IMG/VR virus record: IMGVR_UViG_2706794662_000005
Origin: a virus
Taxonomy: Duplodnaviria; Heunggongvirae; Uroviricota; Caudoviricetes
Length of the DNA: 25,237 nt
Reading direction: 5' to 3' (one strand)
Position 1 is the first letter of the stretch. Every line of letters starts with the position of its first letter. The notes below the pieces were generated by a model, which saw nothing but the letters and a program-made list of their open reading frames with translations, did no database searches and was not told the origin of the DNA. Position numbers and translations under genes: made by a program. Shown piece after piece: positions 2,297 through 23,956 of this stretch.

Positions 2297-5119
2297 ATGA
2301 CGGCAGAGTACATCAGGGACTGGCAACAACCGCGCCACGCAGTGGGGCGTGAAGGAACGGGGATCCCCGCTCCTGAATCCGCGCTTTCCTCCTGGCTGGA
2401 TGCCCACCGGGCAGAGAACGAGCGCCGCCAGGAAATGGCTGATGCGGCGTTCTCCGCCACGCCACTGGGCAACCTGATTAATAAAAGCCTGGACGCACAG
2501 GAAAAACAGGACAAAACCATCACACTGGCAGGAGACGCCAGAAAACAGGCACGCGGCGCGGTGGATGAAGCCATGGCCTCGCTGCGCCTGCTGCCGTCCT
2601 ATCTGCGCGATCCGCTTATTCGCCACCTCTCCTTCCTGCGCAAAAAACAGGAAGCCGATCGCCGGAAAGGCAAAAAGAGCTGGCAGGCGGAACGCTATGC
2701 ACGCGGAACCCTGCGCAAAATATTCGAACGTCTGGATCGCACTGACGGACACTGGCTGACACCGGGTTATCGCTCCCTTGCCGGACGTGAACGCCTGGAC
2801 GATTTGCTTTACCTGCCGCAACTCAACAAACACCAGATACAGACGCTGGCCACCATGACGGCGGCGATGTTCAGCAGCACCTTCGAAAAACTCTGCGATG
2901 GTTTTGGCGCGACTGATGGCGAGCTGACCATGGATGTAACGCTGAAGGCGTATCAGATGCTGGCCCGCATGGCGTTACACTTACACGCCATGCCTCCGCA
3001 TTATGACGCACTGACAACAGACAAAGACCGGAGGCACGAACCGGACACAGAACTGCTGCCGGGCGCAATCCTTCGCCTGACCTGTGCGGAATGGTGGAAA
3101 CGCAAACTGTGGCTGTTACGTTGCGAGTGGAGAGAAGAACAACTTCGCGCCGCCTGTCTGGTTTCCAGAAAAACATCGCCCTATCTGAGCCAGGACGCGT
3201 TAAGCGAGTTTCGCGCACAGCGCGAGAAAACACGCGATTTCCTGAAAAGTTTCATGCTGGAAAATGAAGACGGGTTCACGATTGATCTCGAGACGGTGTA
3301 TTACGCGGGAGTAAGTAACCCGGTTCACCGTAAGGCAGAAATGATGGCCACCATGAAGGGGCTGGAACTTCTGGCCGAAGCCCGTGGCGACAAAGCGGTG
3401 TTTCTGACTGTCACCTGCCCGTCAAAATACCACGCCACAACGGAGAACGGTCATCCGAATCCCAAATGGAACGGGGCCACAATGCGCGACTCCAGCGATT
3501 ACCTGGTTAACACGTTTTTTGCGACGGTCCGCAAAAAACTGAACCGCGACGGCCTGCGCTGGTATGGCATCCGCACGGCGGAGCCTCACCATGACGGCAC
3601 CGTGCACTGGCATATGATGGTCTTTGCTCATCCGGAAGAAATCGACACCATTGTGTCCCACACCCGCGATATTGCCATTCAGGAAGATCGTCACGAGCTG
3701 GGCGATGACATAACTCCGCGCTTTAAGGCGGAGTATGTAGACGGCTCAAAAGGCACGCCAACCAGCTACATCGCCACCTACATCGGGAAAAACCTGGACA
3801 GCCGCGCCGTGGATGGCATCGACCCGAAAACGGGCAAGCCACGCGTTGACCACGAAACCGGAAAATCAATGGCCGAGAGCGTGGAACGCGCCATCGGCTG
3901 GGCGCGCCTTCACCGGGTCCGCCAGTTCCAGTTCTTTGGCATCCCCTCCCGCCAGGTATGGCGTGAACTGCGCCGCCTTGCCAGCCAGATGGCACGCAAC
4001 CCGGAAGGCCCGCAACGGCTGAAGGATGACGCAATGGATGCGGTTCTTGCCGCCGCTGATGCCGGATGTTTTGCCACCTACATAGAGAAACAGGGCGGCG
4101 TACTTGTTCCACGCAAAGACTACCTGATTCGCACCGCCTACGACCTCGCCGATGAGCTGAACGATTACGGCGAACAGAGCGTACAGATTTACGGGATCTG
4201 GTCACCACTCATCGGGGAATCCTCCCGTGTGTGCACGCATCCGGATAACTGGAAGCTGGTAAGACGCAAACCGGAAGCGGAAGACAGCGCCCGCGAAAAT
4301 GGTTTTGACCTTCAGGGCGGCCCTGCCGCCCCTTGGACTCGTGGCAATAACTGTCCCCGTGTACAGGAAACGGACAACAACGGGACAGAACAGCCGGAAG
4401 AACGGCCAGCACCGTGGCCGCAGCTCCCTGACGGCGTTGATGTGGATGAATGGATGCGCTCACTGAAACGGCACGAACGCCGGGCGCTGATGCGTTCGCT
4501 TCGTGACAAACAGGCAAAAAACAGCAGTGATGAAATGCAGAGCTGGACACAGAGCCGCAAACAGCAGCGGCCTTTGCCTGATAACCACGAATTACTCGCT
4601 AAAGAATGGCGGGAGTCTGCTGAATCTCTCGGCCTGCATATCGGTGAACAACAGATGCAGCACCTGTTACGGGGCGGCAGTCTGTACGTTGACGGCAGCA
4701 TCATTGCACCGCAGGGATTTGAAATTGTACGCAAACCGGATACCCGCCCGGACAGCCGAATCACGCAGCTCTGGCAGCGCCTGAGCCGTAATCATGGCGT
4801 AAGCAGCACGGAGATCCGCCATAACCCGGTCGCCAGCTATCTGACACAGCTGGGGGCATCAGACCCTGAAGCCGCCGCACGCCTGGCATCCACACTTCAG
4901 CAGGACCAGAACACCATGAAAACACCCGTTACCGTGCTTTCTGACATGCTGCGCGCCATCCGCGACGCAGAGCACGCACAGAGAATCAGTGAAACCACTG
5001 AACGCGCCCGCCGCAAAGCAGACCTGCTGCGGGGTGGCCTGACCAGTGGAAACAAAAAACAGACAGAAACGGGACTCACGAATCCCGTAAATGAGCAAAA
5101 AACGCGCAGCGATATATGA
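2297..5119 (+). CDS. A: rolling-circle replication initiation endonuclease, P2 gpA-like (940 aa)
   Basis: HUH motif TVHWHMMVFAHPEE (about 3596-3640) and a paired-tyrosine motif YIATYIGKN (about 3763-3790), both typical of P2 A-family nickases. Longest ORF in the window. The C-terminal third is hydrophilic and low-complexity. Confidence 0.9.
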   Translation: MTAEYIRDWQQPRHAVGREGTGIPAPESALSSWLDAHRAENERRQEMADAAFSATPLGNLINKSLDAQEKQDKTITLAGDARKQARGAVDEAMASLRLLPSYLRDPLIRHLSFLRKKQEADRRKGKKSWQAERYARGTLRKIFERLDRTDGHWLTPGYRSLAGRERLDDLLYLPQLNKHQIQTLATMTAAMFSSTFEKLCDGFGATDGELTMDVTLKAYQMLARMALHLHAMPPHYDALTTDKDRRHEPDTELLPGAILRLTCAEWWKRKLWLLRCEWREEQLRAACLVSRKTSPYLSQDALSEFRAQREKTRDFLKSFMLENEDGFTIDLETVYYAGVSNPVHRKAEMMATMKGLELLAEARGDKAVFLTVTCPSKYHATTENGHPNPKWNGATMRDSSDYLVNTFFATVRKKLNRDGLRWYGIRTAEPHHDGTVHWHMMVFAHPEEIDTIVSHTRDIAIQEDRHELGDDITPRFKAEYVDGSKGTPTSYIATYIGKNLDSRAVDGIDPKTGKPRVDHETGKSMAESVERAIGWARLHRVRQFQFFGIPSRQVWRELRRLASQMARNPEGPQRLKDDAMDAVLAAADAGCFATYIEKQGGVLVPRKDYLIRTAYDLADELNDYGEQSVQIYGIWSPLIGESSRVCTHPDNWKLVRRKPEAEDSARENGFDLQGGPAAPWTRGNNCPRVQETDNNGTEQPEERPAPWPQLPDGVDVDEWMRSLKRHERRALMRSLRDKQAKNSSDEMQSWTQSRKQQRPLPDNHELLAKEWRESAESLGLHIGEQQMQHLLRGGSLYVDGSIIAPQGFEIVRKPDTRPDSRITQLWQRLSRNHGVSSTEIRHNPVASYLTQLGASDPEAAARLASTLQQDQNTMKTPVTVLSDMLRAIRDAEHAQRISETTERARRKADLLRGGLTSGNKKQTETGLTNPVNEQKTRSDI

Positions 5120-5167
5120 AGCGCGCACAAAACAGGCAAAAACGGGATTTCAGAATCCCGTAAACGA
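5051..5167. repeat. two copies of a ~42-bp direct repeat, each holding a 6-bp inverted repeat (ACGGGA-N8-TCCCGT); candidate parC centromere/operator or replication origin
   Basis: Palindrome cores at 5069-5088 (acgggactcacgaatcccgt) and 5142-5161 (acgggatttcagaatcccgt), with shared flanks aaacag.ca.aaacggga...gaatcccgtaaa. Copy 1 overlaps the last codons of rep; copy 2 lies 35-55 bp upstream of the parM start. Confidence 0.4.
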
Positions 5168-5195
5168 TTAATTAATCAACATAAGGAAAAGCGAC

Positions 5196-6155
5196 ATGAA
5201 AATTTGTATCGACGACGGCTCCACCAACATCAAGCTGGCATGGACTGAGAACGGCGAACGCCGCAACGCCATCAGCCCGAACAGCTTCAAGTCGGAATGG
5301 TCTGCGCCGTTCGGTGGCATGCAGCCCGCGAACTACATGCTTGATGGCGTGCGCTATGGTTTTGATCCGGTCAGCGATCGCTTTGTCCAGACAACCGACA
5401 CGCAATACCAGTACAGCGATGTAAATGTCATTGCCATTCATCACGCGCTGGTCAAATCAGGCATCACGCCACAGGAGGTGGATGTGGTTGTCACCCTGCC
5501 ACTGAGCGAGTATTTCGACACAAACGCACAGCCGGACATGGCCAACATCAACCGCAAAAAAGCGAACGTTATGCGCCCGGTGGAGTACCAGAACGGCGAA
5601 GCATTCACTATCCGTAACGTGCGGGTTATGCCTGAATCCATTCCGGCTGGCTTTAAGGCACTGGCTGACATGAGTCCGTTTGAATCCCTGCTGATTGTGG
5701 ATTTGGGCGGAACCACGCTGGATGTGGCAAAGGTTCAGGGGCAACTGGCAGGTATCAGCCAGGTGTTTTGCGATCCACACGTAGGCGTTTCTCTGATGGC
5801 CGATGCCGTACTGTCGGTGATGGCCACTAACGGTATGCGCACCAGTCACCACATCGCCAATACCATTATCGAACATCGCCATGATGAAGCCTGGCTGCGC
5901 CAGCACATCCACAATGACGCGCATTACGCCAGCCTGATGGCGGTTATTCGTGAAAAGGAAGAAACACTGAAACAACGCGTGATCCGCGCGCTGGCGGGTT
6001 TTTCGGGTTACGGGCGGGTGATGGTTGTCGGTGGAGGGGCGGAGATTGTGGCACCCGCTATCCGCGAAGCCTGCGGAGTTAATGCGACTTTCATCGCGGA
6101 CGGGGTGCCACAGTTTGCTCTGGTTAATGGGCTGTACGCAATGGACAAGGAGTAA
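5196..6155 (+). CDS. parM: actin-like segregation ATPase, ParM/StbA family (319 aa)
   Basis: N-terminus MKICIDDGSTNIKLAW and downstream blocks (ISPNSFK.EW, YQYSDVNVIAIHHAL, LIVDLGGTTLDV) match my recollection of plasmid R1 ParM. RBS AAGGAAA upstream. Confidence 0.85.
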   Translation: MKICIDDGSTNIKLAWTENGERRNAISPNSFKSEWSAPFGGMQPANYMLDGVRYGFDPVSDRFVQTTDTQYQYSDVNVIAIHHALVKSGITPQEVDVVVTLPLSEYFDTNAQPDMANINRKKANVMRPVEYQNGEAFTIRNVRVMPESIPAGFKALADMSPFESLLIVDLGGTTLDVAKVQGQLAGISQVFCDPHVGVSLMADAVLSVMATNGMRTSHHIANTIIEHRHDEAWLRQHIHNDAHYASLMAVIREKEETLKQRVIRALAGFSGYGRVMVVGGGAEIVAPAIREACGVNATFIADGVPQFALVNGLYAMDKE

Positions 6156-6159
6156 ACCA

Positions 6160-6471
6160 ATGACGACACCAACCAGACGGATAAGTTTCTATCTGAAGCC
6201 TGCGGCCGTCAAGAACGAAAGCGAAGCATGCGCCTGGCTGGGCAGCCTTACACCAGAAGCCCGCAAAAGCGGCCAACGCGTGGCTTTTCTGGCCGGGCTG
6301 GCACTTCTGAAAATGAATCCAGCAGAGGCTTACCGACTGGCTGCATGGGCTGACGATGAGGCGTTATCGGTGACACAAACCAGGACAGAACGCCCCGTGC
6401 CACAGCCAGTACCAACCGCACAGATAACCAGTCAGATAGCAGGGAATATCCGGGCATTATTTCCTGAATGA
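6160..6471 (+). CDS. parR: ParR/StbB-like centromere-binding adaptor (103 aa)
   Basis: Starts 5 nt after the parM stop with AAGGAG RBS. Small protein; N-terminal RRISFYLKPAAV and C-terminal IRALFPE resemble R1 ParR as I recall it. The ORF track lists the frame from 6025; 6160 is the in-frame ATG with an RBS. Confidence 0.65.
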   Translation: MTTPTRRISFYLKPAAVKNESEACAWLGSLTPEARKSGQRVAFLAGLALLKMNPAEAYRLAAWADDEALSVTQTRTERPVPQPVPTAQITSQIAGNIRALFPE

Positions 6472-6531: not shown

Positions 6532-7056
6532 ATGAAAAAATACGAATACATGCTAATGAAAGAAGCACTGCGGGCTGGTCTGGCTCCCTGTCCTGTATCC
6601 GTAGAAGCTGTTGTTGGGAACACGATTTTCCGAACGCTGCGAAATCGCGTATCCGTGAAGATGGTTCACCAACCACCCAAATCTACCAGCATGATCTATC
6701 TGCCGCTGCCCGAGGCTATCAAACTTATGCGTTCGCTGAAATTTGCGATTTGGATGCAGACACAAATCAACAAAGCGGTGCAAAACACCTTCGTTAAGAG
6801 ACTAATACCGGAGCTTGCTGCCAGATGTGCAAAATGTACCAGACCCGCACTTCAATTTGATCTGTCATTGATTCAACAAGCTACGGAGGCAGAACTGTAC
6901 CGCCTGTCACCTATCCGTGATGCTCACACGGAAGCATCAGAAATGTTCCGGCTCATGTTTCAATTTAATTTTGCCGTTCGACGCACACGCGTTCAGGTCA
7001 ATCGCATGATGCAGGAGCAGGAAGAGTTAACACAGTACAAAGGGGGCAGCCAGTGA
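6532..7056 (+). CDS. hypothetical protein (174 aa), first gene of an accessory cassette
   Basis: GAGGA RBS, ATG at 6532. No recognisable motif. Noticeably more AT-rich than the structural genes by eye (not computed). Its stop overlaps the next start (ATGA). Confidence 0.6.
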   Translation: MKKYEYMLMKEALRAGLAPCPVSVEAVVGNTIFRTLRNRVSVKMVHQPPKSTSMIYLPLPEAIKLMRSLKFAIWMQTQINKAVQNTFVKRLIPELAARCAKCTRPALQFDLSLIQQATEAELYRLSPIRDAHTEASEMFRLMFQFNFAVRRTRVQVNRMMQEQEELTQYKGGSQ

Positions 7057-7292
7057 GTAATTCAGCACGACTACAGCTTGGTTTTTCACCGCTATCAAAA
7101 ACCATCGTATTGGCAAAAATGCGTGACTTAGGAGACGGAACAAAACGCCGCGTAGGAAATGATCGCGGTCGCGATGTAACCAACGAGGCCGCTCAACTCG
7201 TTTGGCATCTAGTCATGGCAGAAGGCGGTGAAATTAATTGGGAGCTGGATGATGGTTCTCGTATGATTTTGAGGGCCGAGAAGAGTAAATAG
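7053..7292 (+). CDS. hypothetical protein (79 aa), second gene of the accessory cassette
   Basis: Translationally coupled to the upstream gene (ATGA overlap at 7053-7056). No motif recognised. Confidence 0.5.
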   Translation: MSNSARLQLGFSPLSKTIVLAKMRDLGDGTKRRVGNDRGRDVTNEAAQLVWHLVMAEGGEINWELDDGSRMILRAEKSK

Positions 7293-7306
7293 CTCAAGGG
7301 GGATTA

Positions 7307-7492
7307 ATGCTAAATGATGATGAAGAAGAGCTGCTTATGCAGGAATGGTCGCTCGGTGATTATGATAATGGTGAAAATGGGTGCCCGCATTGTGGCCGTT
7401 ATCGTTTATGTATCTGCCAGAATGGAAAACACAGATGTGAAAAGTGCAATTGGTCTCCGGAACTTAATGACTACGTGCCGATCGAGTGGTAG
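7307..7492 (+). CDS. small Cys-rich protein with putative zinc ribbon (61 aa), third gene of the accessory cassette
   Basis: AAGGGGG RBS upstream. Cysteine pattern CPHCG...CICQNGKHRCEKC and an acidic N-terminus. AT-rich. Confidence 0.5.
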   Translation: MLNDDEEELLMQEWSLGDYDNGENGCPHCGRYRLCICQNGKHRCEKCNWSPELNDYVPIEW

Positions 7493-7499
7493 AGGTAAG

Positions 7500-7980
7500 T
7501 CACACTAGGTGTTTTTTAGTTGATTTTATAAATGCACAATAGTGCACAAATTTGCACAATTTTTTTGAACGACTTTTTGCCCTTCCGGCCCGCGTGGCGG
7601 CTGGATCCGTCAAGGATCCGTGCATGCACAAAAAAACGCGTTTTTTCTGCGCGCAGGTGACGGGGGAACAGCCCGCGTTTCAGGGGGTAAATAGCATTCC
7701 CTGAACGATGTCGCAGAGATACAACAGAATGGCTGTATTTCTCACGCTGAGCGTGAAAAAGACGTGAGGGCTTTTGATTTGATGGGGTGAAAGGTAAGGC
7801 CGTCAAAATCGCACTGAGACGGCGAGAATATGCAGTCAACGAGGTGGGATTGCGTAAGAGTCTGACTGTCGATGATGGCAATCAGCAGGAAAGCGTCGTG
7901 AAATTATCTGACTGATACAGGAGCTGGAGAGTCGGGGCATAAATTTTTTATGCCCCGGCGAAGCAGCAGACAAGCGAAGC
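7500..7980. other. non-coding cos / packaging region (putative)
   Basis: About 490 bp without a convincing ORF between the cassette and the portal gene, where P2-family phages carry cos. Contains TGCACAA three times at exact 10-bp phasing (7533, 7543, 7553), GGATCCGT twice (7603-7610, 7614-7621), an A6-CGCG-T6 palindrome (7631-7646), a GC-rich 19-mer ggtgacgggggaacagccc (7656-7674) that loosely resembles the P2/186 cohesive end as I remember it, and a perfect 10-bp-stem hairpin at 7933-7957. Confidence 0.45.
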
Positions 7981-7983
7981 GCG

Positions 7984-9030
7984 TCAGGATGTGGGCTGGG
8001 TGTCTAACAGTGCGTAAGGGTTAAAGCGGATCACCTCTTCGCCAAGCCAGTCATTGATGTGCTTCATGGCCTCCATGACGGGCATCAGCTCGTTAATTGC
8101 GTAAACCCGCGCGGCCTTCTCCACATCACCAAACGCACTTTTTTCGCCCGGCATCGCCCCCATCAGTTGCGGCGGAACGCGGTGCGCAGCCAGCACATCA
8201 TCACGGGATGCCGCCTTAACATTCATGAACTCATCCTTTGCGGTGATCTGCTGGAACGGCAAAATTTGCACCCCCTCTTTGCCCCCGTTGGGCGCATGAA
8301 TGAGCACGTTTTTAAACGCACCACCACCACGTGCCCCCTGTAGCGTTTCTTTCAGGGAGTCCATGCTTTCGCGGTTTACCTGCGCTGCACCGATGTAGAT
8401 GATGCACCCGGCGTGGGATCCGTTGTCGTAGTACAGTTTTCTGAACATGTCCGCCGAATGAGAAAGGCTGGCCGAGAGTAATGCGCCAAGATATTCCGGC
8501 ATGCCGTAGATTTCCTGGTTAATATCCGGATTCATCAGGTGGCACACTTTGCCAGGACGAAACTGAAACGCATCCTTGCCATCCTGCACATACCACCATG
8601 ATTCAAGATCGCTTCCGCGTCGCATGTATTTCGCCAGGGCGTGCCGTAATTTAAGCGGTTCGCCGAGCATATTGCTCCGAAGCTCAAGGAATGCGTTACC
8701 GAACACAAACCAGTCCAGCGCCAGCGCCGAGAAATCCTGCCGGGAAAGCAGCGGGTGCGGAATATAGCAGCCGAGCAATACATTGCGCTTAAAGTAAAGC
8801 GCAGACTGATGCCAGGACGTTTGCCGGGCAGCTCTTGCCAGACCGTACCAGTCCACCGGGGTTTCATACCACCGCCCGTTATCAGCACAGTACATATTGT
8901 CCAGCAGGTCATGCCCGGTCAGGCGGTAAGGACCATCAAATGTGAATGCACTGAGCGACGATTCTTTCCTGAGCGCATCAGCGAGATCAATGCGTGAACT
9001 CATGCGCACTTTTTTATTTTTTCTGCTCAT
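7984..9030 (-). CDS. Q: portal protein, P2 gpQ-like (348 aa)
   Basis: Size, position next to the terminase and translational coupling (TGATG overlap with gpP at 9028-9032) match the P2 Q-P arrangement. Confidence 0.88.
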   Translation of the reverse strand: MSRKNKKVRMSSRIDLADALRKESSLSAFTFDGPYRLTGHDLLDNMYCADNGRWYETPVDWYGLARAARQTSWHQSALYFKRNVLLGCYIPHPLLSRQDFSALALDWFVFGNAFLELRSNMLGEPLKLRHALAKYMRRGSDLESWWYVQDGKDAFQFRPGKVCHLMNPDINQEIYGMPEYLGALLSASLSHSADMFRKLYYDNGSHAGCIIYIGAAQVNRESMDSLKETLQGARGGGAFKNVLIHAPNGGKEGVQILPFQQITAKDEFMNVKAASRDDVLAAHRVPPQLMGAMPGEKSAFGDVEKAARVYAINELMPVMEAMKHINDWLGEEVIRFNPYALLDTQPTS

Positions 9031-10781
9031 CAGAACTCCATAACCGTGAAACGCTCGTTTTCTCCTTCGCCGCCAATCGGTTCGTTAATGACAGCAAGCA
9101 TGGTTGCCCACGCAAGGTCGCCGTGGCTGATCCCCCTCGCGCGGTCCGTTTCGTAAGTGATAAAACCGCCCGGTGTTTTCACCTTACGCACGGCGTTAAA
9201 GGCCGCAACCAGCTCGCGTTCGGCGCGATCGTATTCCCACCGCCCGGCACGCATTATTTGCAGCATTTTCAGTACCAGCGACCGTTTTGATGACAGCGTG
9301 AAGGTGTAAGGGATGGCGGCGGGAAAAAACCGTTTCACTATCTGATAGACGGCATCCCCGTGCCCTCCCGTCGCATCAATGCCGATGTGTTCCACGTTGT
9401 AGCGATACGTGAACTCTTCAATAACTCTGGCCTGCTCTTCAAATTCCAGCCCCTGAACGCGTCGCGTCTCCACCGTTCTGAAACGACCACCAGGAACAGC
9501 CGGAGGAACCACCACGGACACAGCGCCGCTGTCGCCGTTACCACTGCTGCCGTTTGCGTCATACCCAATCCATACCGGACGATTCCCCATCGGGCGGGGG
9601 GCAAAGGGTTTCCAGTCTTTCCAGTCGTCGTATCCGTCAACACCGCAGCCAATCAGGATATTCAGGTTAAATGCCGATTCCCCTTCGCGGACAAACTCAC
9701 ACATATAGAGATTGCGGAACTCGTCTTCGGTGTTTTCATCACGAATTTCATCAATATCGGTGTGTTTCCAGCCGTGATTAACCACATCTTCCAGCGTGAC
9801 AATTTGCCGCCACGTCCGGTCAGGGCAGATAAGCCCGTTATGCAGCGTTTTCCAGTCCACAGAAAAACGCTGGCGTTTATGCGCGGCCTTTTTCTCGTTC
9901 CAGCGGTCGCCGTTCCAGTAGGCGTATGCCTCGTGCGTTTCGGTGGATGGCGTGGAGAAGCAGGTGCGCCGCAGTCCGCTGAGGGTTGCCATAGCGCCAG
10001 CCACCTTGCGCAGTTCAGCAAAGCGACTGACCCAGAAAAATTCATCAAAATAAAAATTGCCCGTGTAAGATTGCGCCGTCGCAGCAGAAGTGCCGAGAAA
10101 ATGCATCTCTGCGCCGTTGGAGAGGATGATTTTATCGCCCCCTTTCAGCTCCACATCGACTTCAGCCGCGGCCTTCTGAATAATGCTTTTAAACTGGAAC
10201 GCCTGACGACGCGACGCAGACAAAAAAATCTGGTTACGCTGGTAAGGTTGTGCCACATCGTCACGCAGCGCCATCAGCAGTGCTTCCTGTGCAAAATACC
10301 AGGTCGCCCCAATCTGTCGGGATTTCAGGATCATCCTGTTACGTATCCCGGCTTCCCTGCAAAGCGTCAGGGAGTCAAACCAGCCCCGCTGATGCCACTC
10401 CAGCCTGCTGATGATTTTTTCCCGCAGTGCGGCAATCTGTTCCGGCGTGAAATGATTTTTGAGTTTTTTCGCCCGGCCTTTCTTTCCTGTGGCCGTCGCA
10501 TCCGGCTGGCCATCATGCAGTTTTTTAAGCTGCCGGGTCAGCAGGTCTATTTCCTTAAAGTCACCACCTGTTTTATTCTGTTTTTCAGTAAGCTGGATGA
10601 GGCGCGCATCGATGGACTGCGTGACACGCTGCACGGGTGGCGTTTCATCCCACTGGTCGCGTTTTTTCCACGCATAAATCGTGTTCGGGTTTATTCCCAT
10701 CAGACGTGATATTTCTGCGGGCGGATAACCCTGCCAGTAAAGTTGCCGCGCACGCTGGCGCACAAAAGCGTCCTGAATCAT
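9030..10781 (-). CDS. P: terminase large (ATPase) subunit, P2 gpP-like (583 aa)
   Basis: 583-aa minus-strand ORF divergent from the scaffold gene, with GGGGAG RBS. An N-terminal HTH-like region (YPPAEISRLMGINPNTIYAWKKR) is followed by a large ATPase/nuclease body, as in P2 P. Confidence 0.9.
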   Translation of the reverse strand: MIQDAFVRQRARQLYWQGYPPAEISRLMGINPNTIYAWKKRDQWDETPPVQRVTQSIDARLIQLTEKQNKTGGDFKEIDLLTRQLKKLHDGQPDATATGKKGRAKKLKNHFTPEQIAALREKIISRLEWHQRGWFDSLTLCREAGIRNRMILKSRQIGATWYFAQEALLMALRDDVAQPYQRNQIFLSASRRQAFQFKSIIQKAAAEVDVELKGGDKIILSNGAEMHFLGTSAATAQSYTGNFYFDEFFWVSRFAELRKVAGAMATLSGLRRTCFSTPSTETHEAYAYWNGDRWNEKKAAHKRQRFSVDWKTLHNGLICPDRTWRQIVTLEDVVNHGWKHTDIDEIRDENTEDEFRNLYMCEFVREGESAFNLNILIGCGVDGYDDWKDWKPFAPRPMGNRPVWIGYDANGSSGNGDSGAVSVVVPPAVPGGRFRTVETRRVQGLEFEEQARVIEEFTYRYNVEHIGIDATGGHGDAVYQIVKRFFPAAIPYTFTLSSKRSLVLKMLQIMRAGRWEYDRAERELVAAFNAVRKVKTPGGFITYETDRARGISHGDLAWATMLAVINEPIGGEGENERFTVMEF

Positions 10782-11795: not shown

Positions 11796-12756
11796 ATGAA
11801 TCTGGTGATGTCAGATATTACCCGCAACAAGCTGGGTTGCTATATGGCGCAGCAGGCGTCGCTTAACAATATCCCGGTTTCTGCACTGGTATCGCGATTT
11901 ACCGTGGAACCTGCGGTGCAGCAACGTTTTGAAAACGCCTCAAAGGATAGCACCGAACTTACAAAAAAAATTAACGTGATCGGCGTGACCGACCAGAAAG
12001 GCGAAAAAATCCTCCTGGACACCACAGGACCGATTGCACGCACAAATACCAGTTATGACGGAACAAAACGCCGTAACCCGAATAACGTGGTTGATCTGAA
12101 AAACCGCAAATACCAGTGCGAACAGGTGAACTACGACACGTTTATTTCGTATCCGCAGCTTGATGCCTGGTCGGCACACAGCGATTTTCAGTCCCGCATC
12201 AGCGCACAGATTGCCCGACAGGTGGCACTTGACCGCATCATGATCGGTTTCAACGGCACATCTCACGCGGATGAGTCCAACTTCAGCACCAACAAGCTGC
12301 TTCAGGACGTTAACGTGGGGTGGCTGGAGCACATCAGAACCAATGCCAGCGAGCGCGTAATGAATGACGTGACGCTGACTTCCCGCAACATGGACAACAC
12401 CGTGGCGCACGCGGGTAAATACGCGAACCCTGATGCACTGGTACAGGACGCGCGCTCATCTCTGCTGGATGAATGGCACAAGGAAGCTGACGACCTCGTG
12501 GTGATTATGGGGCGCAACCTGTTTAACTCGCTGCGTCTGCCAGTGCTGAACAGCATCAGCGGCCAGAATCCCAATGCGGAATTACTTGCCGGGCAGCTCA
12601 TCCTGTCATCGCGCACCATTGGCGGGCTGGGTGTGTTCCTTGCACCGTTCTTCCCGGATGCAACGATGCTGATCACCTCATTCAACAACCTGTCGATTTA
12701 CTGGCAGAAAGGTTCAATGCGTCGTCTGATGAAAGACGAACCGGAATACAACCGCA
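11796..12756 (+). CDS. N: major capsid protein, P2 gpN-like (3' end lost in N-gap)
   Basis: AAGGAG RBS. Blocks FTVEPAVQQ, KYQCEQVNYDTFISYPQLDAWS, IMIGFNGT, LQDVNVGWL and NLSIYWQ match gpN as I recall it. The ORF track fuses it to gpM through the N-run. Confidence 0.88.
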
Positions 12757-13026
12757 NNNNNNNNNNNNNNNNNNNNNNNNNNNNNNNNNNNNNNNNNNNN
12801 NNNNNNNNNNNNNNNNNNNNNNNNNNNNNNNNNNNNNNNNNNNNNNNNNNNNNNNNNNNNNNNNNNNNNNNNNNNNNNNNNNNNNNNNNNNNNNNNNNNN
12901 NNNNNNNNNNNNNNNNNNNNNNNNNNNNNNNNNNNNNNNNNNNNNNNNNNNNNNNNNNNNNNNNNNNNNNNNNNNNNNNNNNNNNNNNNNNNNNNNNNNN
13001 NNNNNNNNNNNNNNNNNNNNNNNNNN
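12757..13026. other. assembly gap (N-run, 270 nt)
   Basis: Run of n characters; hides the gpN 3' end and the gpM 5' end. Confidence 0.99.
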
Positions 13027-13676
13027 CCAGAAGCGCGAAAGCCGACATCAAAAAAGCGTTGTTGCCGGACTTTTCCGGCTGGATTGAGGGAACGCTGGAG
13101 GCTGACGGCGGGCAACAGGACGAAGTGATTGCCACGCTGATGGTGTGGGCGATTGACTGCGGCGATCTTCCGCTTGCGCTGCGTATTGGTGCGTATGCGG
13201 TCCGTCACAACCTCATCATGCCGGATAACTTTGGCCGTACTGCTGCCACAGTGCTGACCGAAGAAATCTGCAATCCGGTACTGACGCAGGCCGGGACGGA
13301 TGCCGACGCGGATTTGTCCGTCTTTATCGAACCACTGGACACACTTTGGGAAATTGTCGCCAACCAGGATATGCCGGACGAAGTGCGCGCCAAATTATGC
13401 AAGGCGTGCGCCTTTGCCCGCCGTGGCCTGAGCGATGCGGACAGCATGGCCTCATCACTGAAGCTGCTGCGCGAAGCGATGCATCTGAACCAGAACGCAG
13501 GTGTGAAACGCGAGATTGCAACCCTTTCCCGCGCCCTGAAAAAAGCCGATTCCGCAGCCGCACCAGAAGACGCCAGCGCACAGCAGGCGCAGGACGAAAG
13601 CAGCGAAAGTAAAAAGACAACGCGGAAGCCTGCAACACGAAAAACCACCGCGACGCAGAAGGCGAAGCGCGGTTAA
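13027..13676 (+). CDS. M: terminase small (endonuclease) subunit, P2 gpM-like (5' end in gap)
   Basis: Post-gap translation ...VWAIDCGDLPLALRIGAYAVRHNLIMP...DMPDEVRAKL...NAGVKREI... followed by a basic tail resembles P2 gpM. Confidence 0.82.
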
Positions 13677-15567: not shown

Positions 15568-15839
15568 NNNNNNNNNNNNNNNNNNNNNNNNNNNNNNNNN
15601 NNNNNNNNNNNNNNNNNNNNNNNNNNNNNNNNNNNNNNNNNNNNNNNNNNNNNNNNNNNNNNNNNNNNNNNNNNNNNNNNNNNNNNNNNNNNNNNNNNNN
15701 NNNNNNNNNNNNNNNNNNNNNNNNNNNNNNNNNNNNNNNNNNNNNNNNNNNNNNNNNNNNNNNNNNNNNNNNNNNNNNNNNNNNNNNNNNNNNNNNNNNN
15801 NNNNNNNNNNNNNNNNNNNNNNNNNNNNNNNNNNNNNNN
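15568..15839. other. assembly gap (N-run, 272 nt)
   Basis: Run of n characters; hides the spanin 3' end, any embedded outer-membrane spanin and the gpR 5' end. Confidence 0.99.
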
Positions 15840-16926: not shown

Positions 16927-17490
16927 GCGCAGAACTCATGCGACTGCTGAGCAATATCATCCGCACCGGGATCATCTCTGAAGTTGATGAGGAATCCTGG
17001 TGCGTGCGCGTTCGCAGCGGCGAANNNNNNNNNNNNNNNNNNNNNNNNNNNNNNNNNNNNNNNNNNNNNNNNNNNNNNNNNNNNNNNNNNNNNNNNNNNN
17101 NNNNNNNNNNNNNNNNNNNNNNNNNNNNNNNNNNNNNNNNNNNNNNNNNNNNNNNNNNNNNNNNNNNNNNNNNNNNNNNNNNNNNNNNNNNNNNNNNNNN
17201 NNNNNNNNNNNNNNNNNNNNNNNNNNNNNNNNNNNNNNNNNNNNNNNNNNNNNNNNNNNNNNNNNNNNNNNNNNACTTTGCAGGCATCCATCAGCGTGAC
17301 ACTGAACACGCCTGTCGTGGAATGCACAGACCTTCTGAGAACAGCGACGCTTGACGTCACAAAAGGGGGAACGATGAGCGGCAATATCACGCACAGCGGC
17401 GGCGATTTCACCTCAAACGGCATCACAGTGCATACGCATAAGCACGGTGGCGTTAAAGGTGGCAGCGATTCGACAGGAGGCCCGCAGTGA
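16923..17490 (+). CDS. V: baseplate spike / assembly protein, P2 gpV-like (interrupted by N-gap)
   Basis: N-terminus MSAELMRLLSNIIRTGII... before the gap and C-terminus ...TKGGTMSGNITHSGGDFTSNGITVHTHKHGG... after it both match gpV. The two halves are in different frames across the N-run, so the N length is not the true gap length. Confidence 0.8.
17025..17274. other. assembly gap (N-run, 250 nt)
   Basis: Run of n characters inside gpV. Confidence 0.99.
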
Positions 17491-19262: not shown

Positions 19263-21299
19263 ATGAGTACCACAACACGAAAATTTAAAACCATTATCAC
19301 CGATACGGGTGCAAAAAAATTAGCGCAGGCAACCGCGCCAGATGGGAAACCTGTCCGCCTGACACATATGGCCGTGGGTGACGGCGGCGGTACTTTACCC
19401 ACGCCAGACAGTAAGCAGACCCGTCTTGTGCATGAGGTGTGGCGACATACCGTTAATCGCGTCACCCTGGACGCAACACATCAGAACCACATTATTGCGG
19501 AGCTGGTTATTCCTCCTGAAACGGGCGGATTCTGGATCCGGGAAATTGGTGTGTTTGATGAGCACGGCGATTTGATCGCGGTAGGCAATACTGCCGAAAG
19601 TTACAAGCCAACCGTTGCCGAAGGATCCGGACGTGCACAAACATTTCGCACCATTCTGACCGTATCCAGCACTGCCACTGTGGCGCTTACCGTGGATAAC
19701 ACCATGGTGATGGCCACAGTGAATTACGTGGATGACAAACTGAAAGAGCATGAACAGTCACGACGTCACCCGGACGCCTCGCTGACCGCAAAAGGCCTTG
19801 TCCAGCTCAGCAACGCCACCAACAGCACGTCTGAAACGCTGGCAGCGACACCAAAAGCCGTTAAGGCAGTAATGGATGAAACGAACAAGAAAGCCCCATT
19901 AAACAGCCCGGCACTGACCGGAACGCCAACAACACCAACTGCGCGACAGGGAACGAATAATACCCAAATCGCAAGCACGGCTTTCGTTATGGCTGCGATT
20001 GCCGCACTTGTAGACTCTTCGCCTGATGCACTGAACACACTGAACGAGCTGGCGGCGGCGCTGGGCAACGACCCGAATTTTGCGACCACCATGACTAACG
20101 CGCTTGCGGGTAAGCAACCGAAAGATGCCACTCTGACGGCGCTGGCGGGGCTTGCTACTGCGGCAGACAGGTTTCCGTATTTTACGGGGAATGATGTCGC
20201 CAGCCTGGCAACCCTGACAAAAGTCGGGCGGGATATTCTTGCGAAATCGACCGTTGCCGCCGTTATCGAATACCTCGGTTTACAGGAAACGGTAAACAAG
20301 GCTGGTAACGCCGTGCAAAAAAATGGCGATACGTTGTCCGGTGGACTTACTTTTGAAAACGACTCAATCCTTGCCTGGATTCGAAATACTGACTGGGCAA
20401 AGATTGGGTTTAAAAATAATTCGGATGCAGACACCGATTCCTACATGTGGTTTGAAACAGGCAACAACGGCAATGAATATTTCAAATGGAGACACCGCAT
20501 CATTGGCACCCGGCCTAAAGACCTGATGAATCTTAAATGGAATGCTTTGTCTGTTCTTGTTGAAGCCCTTTTCAGCAGTGAAGTGAAAATATCGACAGTC
20601 AATGCACTGAGGATATTTAATTCATCTTTTGGTGCCATTTTTCGTCGTTCTGAAGAATGCCTGCATATCATCCCTACACGAGAGAATGAAGGGGAAAATG
20701 GTAATATAGGGCCACTACGCCCCTTTACGCTTAATCTCAGAACTGGCCGGATAAGCATGGGGCATGGTCTTGATGTTACAGGGGATATATTTGCAAACCG
20801 TTTTGCAATTAACAGTAGTACCGGCATGTGGATTCATATGCGTGACCAGAATGTTATTTTGGGACGTAATGCGGTATCCACTGATGGTGCTCAGGCTTTG
20901 CTCCGTCAGGACCATGCCGACCGCAAATTTATGATTGGCGGTCTGGGAAATAAGCAATTTGGCATCTACATGATTAATAACTCAAGGACAGCCAATGGCA
21001 CCGATGGTCAGGCGTACATGGATAATAACGGGAACTGGCTTTGCGGCTCGCAAGTTATTCCCGGCAACTATGGCAATTTTGATTCCAGATATGTGAAAGA
21101 TGTTCGACTTGGTTCACAGCAATATTATGGAGTGAACAACTGGCAAACATGGAATTTTCAGTGCCCGTCAGGCTATGTACTGACGGGGATTAACGTACAG
21201 GATACCGGAAAAAACTCTGCCGATAATATTGCAGGCGTTCATTACAGGCCAGTGCAAAAGTATATAAATGGCACTTGGTATAATGTGGCGAGTATTTAA
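19263..21299 (+). CDS. H: tail fibre protein, P2 gpH-like (678 aa), C-terminal part inside invertible segment
   Basis: N-terminus [23 protein letters not shown]... is typical of P2 H. From about residue 340 (LGLQETVN) the sequence is the variable receptor-binding part, ending ...[11 protein letters not shown]. Confidence 0.9.
20263..20296. repeat. left inverted repeat / invertase crossover site (gix-like) inside gene H
   Basis: ttatcgaatacctcggtttacaggaaacggtaaa; its reverse complement occurs at 23330-23363 with 2 mismatches. Confidence 0.8.
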
Positions 21300-21300
21300 T

Positions 21301-21828
21301 ATGATGCACTTAAAGAACATAAAAGCAGGTAATGCTAAAACAGTGGAGCAGTATGAGTTAACAAAGAAGCACGGAGTCATCTGGCTTTACTCTGAGGACG
21401 GAAAAAACTGGTATGAGGAAGTGAAGAACTTTCAGCCAGACACAATAAAGATTGTTTACGATGCAAATAATATTATTGTCGCCATCACCAAAGATGCCTC
21501 CACGCTTAACCCTGAAGGTTATAGCGTCGTTGAGGTTCCTGATATTACAGCTAATCGTCGTGCTGATGATTCCGGTAAGTGGATGTTTAAGGACGGAGCT
21601 GTGGTTAAACGGATTTATACGGCTGACGAACAGCAACAACAGGCCGAATCACAAAAGGCCGCATTGCTTTCCGAAGCTGAATCAGTCATCCAGCCGCTGG
21701 AACGCGCTGTCAGGCTGAATATGGCGACGGACGAGGAACGCACACGACTGGAAGCATGGGAACGCTACAGTGTTCTGGTCAGCCGTGTGGATACGGCAAA
21801 GCCAGAATGGCCACAAAAGCCTGAGTAA
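21301..21828 (+). CDS. G: tail fibre assembly chaperone, P2 gpG-like (175 aa)
   Basis: ATG at 21301, 2 nt after the H stop. [20 protein letters not shown]... and ...[24 protein letters not shown]... are near-identical to the N-terminal half of the minus-strand paralogue at 21857-22390. Confidence 0.85.
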
Positions 21829-21856: not shown

Positions 21857-22390
21857 TCATTCTGGTTGTTCGGGAAACGTTACTGGCAGGCTGGAGGTGT
21901 CTGTGGATTCGACCTTCTGCGCATAGAGCATCCACTCGGTTAATTTTTGTTTATTCTCGTCGGAAATAATGCCCAGCCGTAGCTGTGAGTCCCATAGCTG
22001 GGTTTTATCCCTGACGAGCTGTAGCAGGCTTTGCTTTTCATTTTCCGCTTGTTGCCTCTGCTCTTCCCCGGTATAAGTTCGCTTTATCACTACGCCATCT
22101 TTGAACATCCATTTACCTGAAATATCAGCCCGGCGATTTGCTGTAATATCAGGAACCTCAACGACGCTTGCGCCTTCCGGATTAATTGCTGAAACATCCT
22201 TTTCAATACAAATAATAACGCCGTTGTGGTCATAGACCATTTTCAACGTATCAGGCTGAAAGTTCTTTTGTTCCTCATACCAGTTTTTCCCATCCTCTGT
22301 ATAAAGCCATTTGATGTTAAATTGTTTCGTTAGCTGGTATTGCTCTTTTGTTTCAGGATTACCAGCAGAAATGTTTTTTAAGTGCATCAT
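21857..22390 (-). CDS. alternative tail fibre assembly chaperone (G'-like, 177 aa)
   Basis: N-terminal half nearly identical to gpG (MMHLKNISAGNPETKEQYQL...), C-terminal half divergent. Minus strand within the invertible segment. Confidence 0.85.
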   Translation of the reverse strand: MMHLKNISAGNPETKEQYQLTKQFNIKWLYTEDGKNWYEEQKNFQPDTLKMVYDHNGVIICIEKDVSAINPEGASVVEVPDITANRRADISGKWMFKDGVVIKRTYTGEEQRQQAENEKQSLLQLVRDKTQLWDSQLRLGIISDENKQKLTEWMLYAQKVESTDTSSLPVTFPEQPE

Positions 22391-22392
22391 CG

Positions 22393-23355
22393 TTAAATAC
22401 TCCCCGCGTTATACCACGTCCCATTAATGCAATACTGAATTGGCCTTGCCTGAGTTGTATCAATTAGTTCATCTCTGTTTGAGTTAACGGAACCGGTAAC
22501 AACATAACCTGACCTGTCAGACCATCCGGGACCATTCCATGTCTGAACAGATAACAGACCACCAAGGCGAATACCTGTAATAAACCTTGAGTTACATTCT
22601 GCCTGCGTATATGCACCAACATCTCCCGCAGAGGGTTTGCGGGTTGTGGTGTAAAACTCTGACCAGTCAGCTTCAAAGCCATAACCATCACGCGCTGAAC
22701 GATAAAAAATACCGCCGTTCCTGTAATTCACGCGGAACTGTACAGCAGGGCAGCTCCCCGTATTCATATTGAAGTGGAGGATTAATGTCGATGCGCCACC
22801 AATGTTTGCGTTATAGACCCCGCTATTCCAGTTCCAGCCAACAGCTTTATCATTTCCGACAGTGCTTCCTGTTTGCCCTAAAGCAAATGCAGGTTGTTGA
22901 TTTTTCGTGTTGTAGTCTCGTCGCCAGCCAGGAGCGTAAGCATCACCATGATTAATATAAGTGAATTGAGCGTTAGTAATTCCGCCACCGCTGGACGTGC
23001 TCGGCGTGGTAACGCGTATGGTCATTGCGCCGCGAGTGCCAATAACTTCCACCACAGCACCTGCAAGACAAATATTTCCGCAACCTGTATCTGTAATGAC
23101 CTTATTATTTGCATAAGCCCATGAGCCTTTGCACATCCAGTAAGGATGGTTAAATGCTCCCTGACTCTCCAGCCACGAAATAAATTGCGCGGTTGTCCAG
23201 ACCTGACTATCGCCACCAATATTCAGCCATGAGCTATATGCGCGGCAGGCACCAATATTTTTGGTGAAGGTATCTTTCCCCGGAATATCTGCGCCGTTCT
23301 GGTTTTTCTGTAATGCGCCAGAAGCCTGATTTACCGTTTCCTGTAAACCGAGGTT
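22393..23355 (-). CDS. alternative tail fibre C-terminal cassette (H' variable region, start-less until inverted)
   Basis: Minus-strand frame is open from the crossover site to the stop at 22393-22395. It begins [21 protein letters not shown]..., matching H at LGLQETVN, and ends ...CINGTWYNAGSI. The ORF track shows only the part from the first internal Met (22393-23136). Confidence 0.8.
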   Translation of the reverse strand, partial: NLGLQETVNQASGALQKNQNGADIPGKDTFTKNIGACRAYSSWLNIGGDSQVWTTAQFISWLESQGAFNHPYWMCKGSWAYANNKVITDTGCGNICLAGAVVEVIGTRGAMTIRVTTPSTSSGGGITNAQFTYINHGDAYAPGWRRDYNTKNQQPAFALGQTGSTVGNDKAVGWNWNSGVYNANIGGASTLILHFNMNTGSCPAVQFRVNYRNGGIFYRSARDGYGFEADWSEFYTTTRKPSAGDVGAYTQAECNSRFITGIRLGGLLSVQTWNGPGWSDRSGYVVTGSVNSNRDELIDTTQARPIQYCINGTWYNAGSI

Positions 23356-23706: not shown

Positions 23707-23956
23707 NNNNNNNNNNNNNNNNNNNNNNNNNNNNNNNNNNNNNNNNNNNNNNNNNNNNNNNNNNNNNNNNNNNNNNNNNNNNNNNNNNNNNNNNNNNNNN
23801 NNNNNNNNNNNNNNNNNNNNNNNNNNNNNNNNNNNNNNNNNNNNNNNNNNNNNNNNNNNNNNNNNNNNNNNNNNNNNNNNNNNNNNNNNNNNNNNNNNNN
23901 NNNNNNNNNNNNNNNNNNNNNNNNNNNNNNNNNNNNNNNNNNNNNNNNNNNNNNNN
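23707..23956. other. assembly gap (N-run, 250 nt)
   Basis: Run of n characters within the invertase locus. Confidence 0.99.

Follow-up and report, generated by a model that had tools for sequence, protein, structure and literature searches.

The ParMRC (StbA/StbB) cassettes of plasmids R1/NR1, of IncF and IncK plasmids and of pB171 are type II segregation systems in which a cis site, parM and parR follow one another in that order. Here, a cassette of the same type is described from a 25,237-nucleotide stretch of viral DNA (IMG/VR record IMGVR_UViG_2706794662_000005; the whole stretch is referred to as the window), in which predicted parM and parR genes lie directly behind gpA, the replication gene of a P2-family phage. 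The phage locus shares with the plasmid systems the gene order, the catalytic residues, the ParR Pfam family, a C-terminal ParR motif, and curved, repeat-bearing upstream DNA. It differs in its setting, as the phage cassette sits in an integrating phage and that of R1 in a low-copy plasmid. The cis site also differs: R1 possesses two sets of five 11-bp iterons flanking a promoter, whereas the phage has two 42-nt palindrome-bearing units that overlap the end of gpA, with no promoter of their own detected.

Actin-like segregation systems have also been described in integrating elements, and these provide the nearest parallels in lifestyle. SrpMRC of the SXT/R391 integrative and conjugative elements (ICEs) was shown to make ICE R391 less prone to loss; once excised, this element replicates by means of a rolling-circle relaxase (Carraro et al. 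2015, PMC4489591). As a ParM-type system in an integrated element with an excised circle and a rolling-circle nuclease, it is the closest functional analogy to the phage locus. Its host is, however, an ICE, and SrpM and SrpR are only distantly related to R1 ParMR (PMC4489591), whereas the phage ParM is a close relative of the R1 protein. A second example is AlpC/AlpA from the Corynebacterium glutamicum prophage CGP3, in which an actin-like filament protein and a co-transcribed DNA-binding adaptor are encoded in an integrated prophage. AlpAC is induced early, and the circular phage DNA depends on it to replicate efficiently (Donovan et al. 2015, PMC4446434). AlpC belongs to a different actin-like family and to a Gram-positive host, while the phage ParM is of the canonical StbA type. 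The phage-plasmid D6 encodes a StbA/StbB pair of the same families as the ParM and ParR described here (ParM 47.8% identical), but D6 is a P1-like phage, compared gene by gene with P1 by its annotators, whereas P88-like phages integrate, and D6 ParM falls outside the clade of P2-like phage proteins.

Among the P2-like phages themselves, about one quarter of those from Escherichia coli carry a putative plasmid partitioning system in the slot between gpA and gpQ (Rousset et al. 2022, PMC9122126), and the phage-plasmid idea has been raised in print (Rousset 2022, PMC9122126; Pfeifer 2021, PMC7969092). RefSeq labels the two genes ParM and partitioning/stability protein, and PHROGs families exist for both. 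Both the observation and the plasmid speculation are hence already known, while functional data on the cassette were not found in the literature, including that on CP-933T and Xuanwuvirus. The present analysis adds a fixed cross-genus block at gpA, purifying selection, a candidate centromere, modular conservation of ParR, and a distribution that argues against stable plasmid lysogeny. We propose, with a probability of roughly 0.6, that the locus is a complete type II (ParMRC-type) segregation cassette, long-standing in integrating P88-like phages of the P2 family, which acts on free phage circles, the timing of that action included.

ParM and ParR

The two protein-coding genes of the cassette are as follows.

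5196-6155, plus strand: parM, actin-fold ATPase of 319 amino acids (aa), predicted to form filaments, assigned by Pfam and by a PDB match to R1 ParM
6160-6471, plus strand: parR, predicted centromere-binding adaptor of 103 aa, Pfam Plasmid_stab_B (2e-23)

ParM matches the Pfam StbA_N domain (2.7e-82, residues 1-157) and the Pfam ParM C-terminal domain (1.3e-68, residues 159-316). A PDB search retrieved the R1 ParM structures 1MWK, 1MWM and 4A62 (E=8.5e-93, residues 2-316), and global identity to R1 ParM amounts to 46.8%. The nucleotide-contacting and catalytic residues of R1 ParM were taken from PMC3794156. P-loop I (residues 8-13), N30, Q73, E148, D170, and P-loop II (G172-T175) are identical in the phage protein, and an alignment to R1 ParM with a check of the ATP-binding residues, as the initial annotation had proposed, found all of them kept except D223, which corresponds to N222.

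The parM open reading frame (ORF) is intact, at 319 aa, in 88/88 loci, a set comprising four annotated phage, chromosome or plasmid records, 83 loci from ParM scans, and the window itself. The gene is under strong purifying selection, with a ratio of nonsynonymous to synonymous polymorphism (pN/pS) of 0.056 at a synonymous divergence of 0.078, as against 0.257 for the last 300 codons of gpA. These values bear on the view that the cassette is a decaying relic of past plasmid-phage recombination, without current function. Canonical P2 manages without the cassette, a few percent of P88-like prophages are without it, and a premature stop truncates one of some 88 ParRs, all of which a relic would accommodate; the uniformly intact and constrained parM genes, together with retention of the cassette down to 54% ParM identity, effectively refute it, and we regard it as hardly credible.

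The start of parR is placed at ATG 6160, four nucleotides past the parM stop and preceded by AAGGAG. TTG 6025, which opens the longest ORF, was rejected in its favor. Apart from its Pfam match, ParR is retrieved by PHROG 2515 ("partition protein", 2.3e-56), and a profile built from 20 phage ParRs matches the ribbon-helix-helix domain of pB171 ParR (PDB 2JD3, "StbB protein") with E=0.0028 over residues 9-75. A single-sequence PDB search with ParR gave no match. The AlphaFold monomer was set aside for its low confidence (predicted local distance difference test score, pLDDT, 56.6). With 103 aa, the phage ParR is shorter than R1-type ParRs and is without about 12 residues of the middle helix region.

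Conservation along ParR is modular. The 88 loci encode 50 distinct ParR proteins, and in the 20-sequence alignment the segment R6-P14 (RRISFYLKP) is invariant, with the helices that follow it nearly so. Residues ~60-93 are hypervariable and fall into several unrelated allele families, while the adjoining ParM stays at least 98% identical (L006-L091); the variability may stem from relaxed constraint on a disordered linker, from recombination, or from diversifying selection. In the search of complete E. coli genomes, 598 of the 1308 matching records had less than 80% query coverage, as would be expected if their ParR allele departs from that of the window beyond about codon 18, a situation seen in the phage records. 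Conservation returns at the C-terminus, where the motif N-I-R-A-L-F-P-E is found; N96, I97, F101, and P102 are invariant across the 20 phage ParRs, and the form N-I/A-x-x-L/M-F-P is common to the ParRs of IncF, IncK, and D6. In R1, the C-terminal 17 residues of ParR bind ParM (PMC3794156), and the corresponding motif of the phage protein probably does likewise. This pattern suggests a head that reads DNA, a flexible linker, and a tail that binds the motor, which is what a working adaptor would be expected to show.

The initial annotation, made from the sequence alone, had named the 319-aa protein ParM, recognized a small ParR-like protein downstream, and likened the arrangement to that of R1. 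The two ParM Pfam domains and the R1 structure match bear out the first assignment; Plasmid_stab_B, PHROG 2515, and the pB171 profile match bear out the second; and the order of centromere candidate, parM, and parR is that of R1. Judged by its genes and residues, the cassette very probably encodes a functional ParMRC-type machine.

A Candidate Centromere at the End of gpA

Upstream palindromic repeats, which had likewise been anticipated, were found as two 42-nt direct repeats, each with a 20-nt palindrome.

5017-5195, no strand assigned: candidate centromere (parC-like), left edge of the par cassette, overlapping the last ~33 gpA codons and the 76-bp gap before parM
5053-5094, no strand assigned: 42-nt direct repeat, copy 1, in the gpA coding tail; palindrome at 5069-5088, ACGGGA-N8-TCCCGT
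5126-5167, no strand assigned: 42-nt direct repeat, copy 2, in the gpA-parM gap; palindrome at 5142-5161

The two copies start 73 bp apart, or about seven helical turns, and the pair straddles the gpA stop. Exact CGGGA-N8-TCCCG occurs at just these two sites in the 25-kb window, and in about 80 related loci it is found at the equivalent two positions only. Across 52 distinct relatives, the palindrome stems are conserved and the loops vary, with a mean minor-allele count of 2.1 in stems versus 7.4 in loops. The Plesiomonas phage L092 displays an equivalent repeat pair, 72 bp apart, that straddles its own gpA stop. Positions 5040-5175 also show the strongest 10.5-bp A-tract phasing of the window (top 0.1% of 136-bp windows); R1 parC is known to be strongly curved (PMC2241845).

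Natural variants help to assign the repeats. P88-like prophages without parMR (L098 and L099) are 96-97% identical to the window through gpA until about position 5003-5017; beyond this point the gpA tail and the cargo differ, and the palindromes are missing. Since the repeats are lost together with parMR, they are part of the par cassette rather than of gpA, and their absence from parMR-less variants makes them the likely centromere, to which ParR would bind. The ParR allele family and the palindrome variant do not co-vary; both families share the beta-strand and pair with the same palindrome core.

An alternative reading of the palindromes as RNA hairpins or a minus-strand terminator was considered and rejected. 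In pair counts over the 52 distinct relatives, compensatory changes are missing, and the wobble-type deviations give no consistent signal, as hairpin 1 favors the minus strand and hairpin 2 the plus strand.

Distribution and Age of the Cassette

The ParMs of true plasmids that come closest to the phage protein are ~52% identical, and the phage or plasmid collections contain no ParM of intermediate identity (between 95% and 52%). Intermediate hits were retrieved from a large protein database, in Plesiomonas (63%), Hafnia (62%), Serratia (58%), and Enterobacter (54%). In each of these four genera, the gene resides in a P2-like prophage with the order gpA, zero to two small genes, parM, parR, variable cargo, and portal. 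Two hits at or below 50% identity were examined for context, one lying in an integrated plasmid and the other in an ICE. A neighbor-joining tree (no bootstrap) places the phage ParMs in one clade, apart from plasmid, ICE, and D6 sequences. Because the same slot is occupied in four other genera and the phage ParMs form a single clade, the sequence comparisons indicate that the cassette is an old, vertically inherited component of a Peduoviridae lineage. The earlier suggestion that it represents cargo captured from a plasmid is not supported as a recent event, given the distance to the nearest plasmid ParM, the common slot, and the single clade.

Within E. coli, the cassette is close to fixed in the P88-like lineage, because the 3′ half of P88-type gpA is present at ≥80% coverage in 1355 complete genomes and the par region in 1307 of 5426, the two sets having been counted separately.

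A ParM 98% identical to the E. coli phage protein is encoded on a 226-kb contig labeled Vagococcus sp., a Gram-positive genus (L010, NZ_JBQPOM010000071.1), which is probably a contaminated or mislabeled assembly.

Expression of parMR

A consensus scan, which is a crude instrument, detected no sigma-70 promoter in 4800-5195, and no plus-strand terminator was found in the scan between gpA and parM. The pattern TGT-N12-ACA, the P2 late-promoter element, was not found near parM either, in what is a weak test. Because neither promoter nor terminator was detected between gpA and parM, the simplest reading is that parMR would be co-transcribed with gpA from the early operon. In lysogens, the P2 immunity repressor silences this early (gpA) operon.

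A short motif, ATTAATCAA, is located just upstream of the parM ribosome-binding site (window 5168-5180, ATTAATTAATCAA; L092 6437-6448; L093 ~7975-7985). It is kept in Escherichia, Plesiomonas, and Hafnia phages despite a ParM identity of only ~62%, and may serve as a weak promoter element or as a site where a protein binds.

Integrated Prophage or Plasmid

The 5426 complete E. coli genomes contain 1455 matches to the par region, all but two of them (1453) on chromosomes. P88 and the prophage of E. coli EA2 encode an integrase, the C repressor, and Cox, with the EA2 element adjoining pheA/pheL, and an integrase is present in every relative examined over the relevant region. P88 and its relatives have integrase, the gpA endonuclease, and parMR together. 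The replication gene near the cassette is P2-type gpA only, and the annotation of the P88 region that was examined lists no plasmid Rep.

This distribution has to be set against the possibility of a facultative phage-plasmid, in which the prophage would persist as a low-copy plasmid, for example where the attachment site is missing or occupied, and alternate with integration. ParMRC is the classic stabilizer of low-copy plasmids, D6 uses a related StbA/StbB pair, and the idea has precedent in the literature (PMC9122126; PMC7969092). The circular record pZ1323PEC0009-2, of 34,461 bp, consists of a whole P88-like phage, and the 32-kb contig of a Plesiomonas relative is roughly of phage size. The circular record still encodes an integrase, however, and a phage 99.9% identical to it over the 2.6-kb integrase-Cox region sits integrated in the chromosome of another strain; a single record of this kind is as compatible with spontaneous induction as with an episome. 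The near-exclusive chromosomal location and the integrase of the relatives examined also speak against a plasmid lifestyle, as do the lack of a plasmid-type replication gene in the window, where gpA alone is found, in an early lytic operon of the kind that is silenced in P2 lysogens, and the lack of a detected separate promoter for parMR.

PLSDB returned seven matches, the best of which is pS2122_1 from Salmonella (L102, NZ_CP110658.1), a 272-kb IncHI2 plasmid with a ffh-pheA chromosome segment and an integrated prophage. This record also counts against a phage-plasmid, as it is a chromosome fragment with a prophage; the block is either a chromosome segment mobilized onto a plasmid or a misassembly. 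Several of the other PLSDB matches are replicons of 0.23-1.4 Mb. Positions 1-38700 of pS2122_1 contain the core genes ffh, rpsP, trmD, rplS, aroF, tyrA, and pheA, a prophage with sopE in its tail-fiber region, and IS26 at the edge. The Plesiomonas shigelloides contig (L092, WEKF01000002.1) is 32,167 bp long, about the size of a phage genome, with the integrase within ~150 bp of one end; it may be a free circle or a contig that breaks off at the attachment sites.

Taken together, a facultative phage-plasmid is an unlikely explanation. The episomal phage-plasmid lifestyle offered by the initial annotation is poorly supported, considering the 1453 of 1455 chromosomal occurrences, the integrase in relatives, and the lack of a detected promoter ahead of parM. 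Of the signs of lifestyle that it had proposed to look for, an integrase was found in relatives, and the one circular record, of 34.5 kb, resembles a free phage genome. Its observation that the window lacks an integrase is true, but only since the window begins ~1.4 kb downstream of that gene. Its further suggestion, a stabilization function for an excised replicon, is plausible and close to the explanation preferred here.

Action of the cassette on the free circles of an integrating phage must itself be weighed against several findings. Apart from the circular record described above, the ribose-contacting Asp223 of R1 ParM is replaced by Asn (N222, window 5859-5861). This position is Asn or Ser in ParMs of Escherichia, Hafnia, Plesiomonas, and Enterobacter phages and Asp in all sampled plasmid, ICE, and D6 ParMs as well as in those of Serratia phages. 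The candidate centromere consists of two units as compared to ten iterons in R1, and these are palindromic instead of simple direct repeats. Pairing gives a neutral signal, since neither compensatory changes nor a consistent strand bias is seen in the stems of the 52 relatives, and the palindromes additionally score like terminator hairpins when read on the minus strand. As the promoter search was a simple consensus scan, parMR may still have a weak or ParR-regulated promoter close to the conserved ATTAATCAA motif.

The Surrounding Phage Genome and Its Cargo Slot

Gene content and DNA matching both identify the window as a P2-family phage. It is 91-98% identical at the DNA level to Escherichia phage P88 (Xuanwuvirus, Peduoviridae) over nearly its full length, in agreement with the P2-like host element recognized by the initial annotation. 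The genome is a P88-like mosaic, to which complete E. coli genomes match at no more than ~97% over 8 kb. The assignment to a P2-type phage also follows from the genes that flank the cassette, gpA upstream and portal and terminase downstream.

2297-5119, plus strand: gpA rolling-circle replication endonuclease, 940 aa (Pfam Phage_GPA, 6.6e-131), with parMR directly 3′ on the same strand
6532-7492, plus strand: three small variable cargo ORFs outside the par cassette, encoding a 174-aa protein with no family match, a DUF7446 protein, and a 61-aa zinc-ribbon protein
7984-10781, minus strand: portal and large terminase genes, downstream of the par cassette

Scaffold, capsid, head-completion, tail-fiber, and gpU tail genes come after the portal and terminase genes. 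Four stretches of the window, of 250-272 bases each, are masked with N (12757-13026, 15568-15839, 17025-17274, and 23707-23956). An apparent 626-aa ORF at 11796-13676, a fusion of major capsid and small terminase, is an artifact of the first of these masked stretches, the two being separate genes in P88. A second set of tail-fiber and tail-fiber-assembly genes (21857-23136, minus strand) lies directly after the main tail-fiber genes (19263-21828, plus strand). In P88 the same layout adjoins the gene of a DNA invertase, suggesting that this host-range segment can invert.

The slot between parR and portal is the P2 accessory-gene hotspot, and its genes differ from phage to phage (compared in L002, L006, L007, L095, L096, L098, and L099). 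Contents in relatives include a ClpX-type zinc-finger protein, ead/Ea22, HicAB, a KAP NTPase, a Dam methylase with an AAA ATPase, and YafO or Doc/Phd toxin-antitoxin pairs. In P2, the same gpA-gpQ slot is the "TO region" (old/tin) hotspot, and Rousset et al. (2022, PMC9122126) describe the region as a hotspot of defense and accessory genes. The phage cassette departs from this scheme in that parMR forms a fixed block adjoining gpA, the truly variable cargo beginning only after parR.

Residence in such a hotspot (PMC9122126), with variable genes directly downstream and toxin-antitoxin pairs among them in relatives, raises the question of whether parMR is accessory cargo with a role other than segregation, excluding competing phages or plasmids through, for instance, partition incompatibility or filament-based defense. 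Against this stand the near fixation of parMR and its position beside gpA across genera. Neither the two Par proteins nor the products of the three ORFs downstream have a match in PADLOC. The linked repeats and the ParR motif that is the probable contact for ParM show the conservation expected of a working segregation machine, and plasmid ParRs are beyond tblastn detection from the phage ParR, which makes cross-interference with plasmid centromeres unlikely. Overall, such a role appears improbable, more so than plasmid persistence.

Proposed Mechanism and Significance

In the reading that we favor, infection or excision would lead to transcription of the early operon through gpA into parM and parR, while rolling-circle replication by gpA would yield phage genomes in circular form. 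Dimers of ParR would load on the two palindrome-bearing 42-nt repeats within the curved DNA at the gpA end, and the C-terminal helix of ParR would capture the ends of ATP-ParM filaments. Filament growth between two ParR-DNA complexes would then push sister circles apart. The benefit may be that extrachromosomal genomes are positioned or partitioned for as long as they are present, with better replication and packaging as a consequence; alternatively, daughter cells might each inherit a copy before integration or after transient excision. No role as keeper of a stable plasmid prophage is envisaged. By analogy, action on excised circles is the best reading, as it has precedents in SrpMRC and AlpAC, both of which operate in integrating elements.

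A more specific proposal is put forward tentatively, as one that may well prove wrong: an integrating P2-type myovirus of enterobacteria would use a canonical R1-type actin spindle as an early-expressed genome-positioning machine instead of for plasmid inheritance, with a minimal two-palindrome centromere in the end of gpA that serves to separate rolling-circle circles during lytic growth or the establishment of lysogeny. If true, no earlier description of such a system would exist for a temperate phage of Gram-negative bacteria, and about one in four sequenced E. coli genomes would carry it.

As the result of a genome scan, the cassette is an annotated feature already discussed in print and not a discovery. 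It is, at the same time, very common and strongly selected, and the role of an actin-like segregation motor in an integrating phage is biologically interesting. The answer would bear on the short extrachromosomal phase of temperate phages, on the boundary between prophages, ICEs, and plasmids, and on interference between prophages and plasmids.

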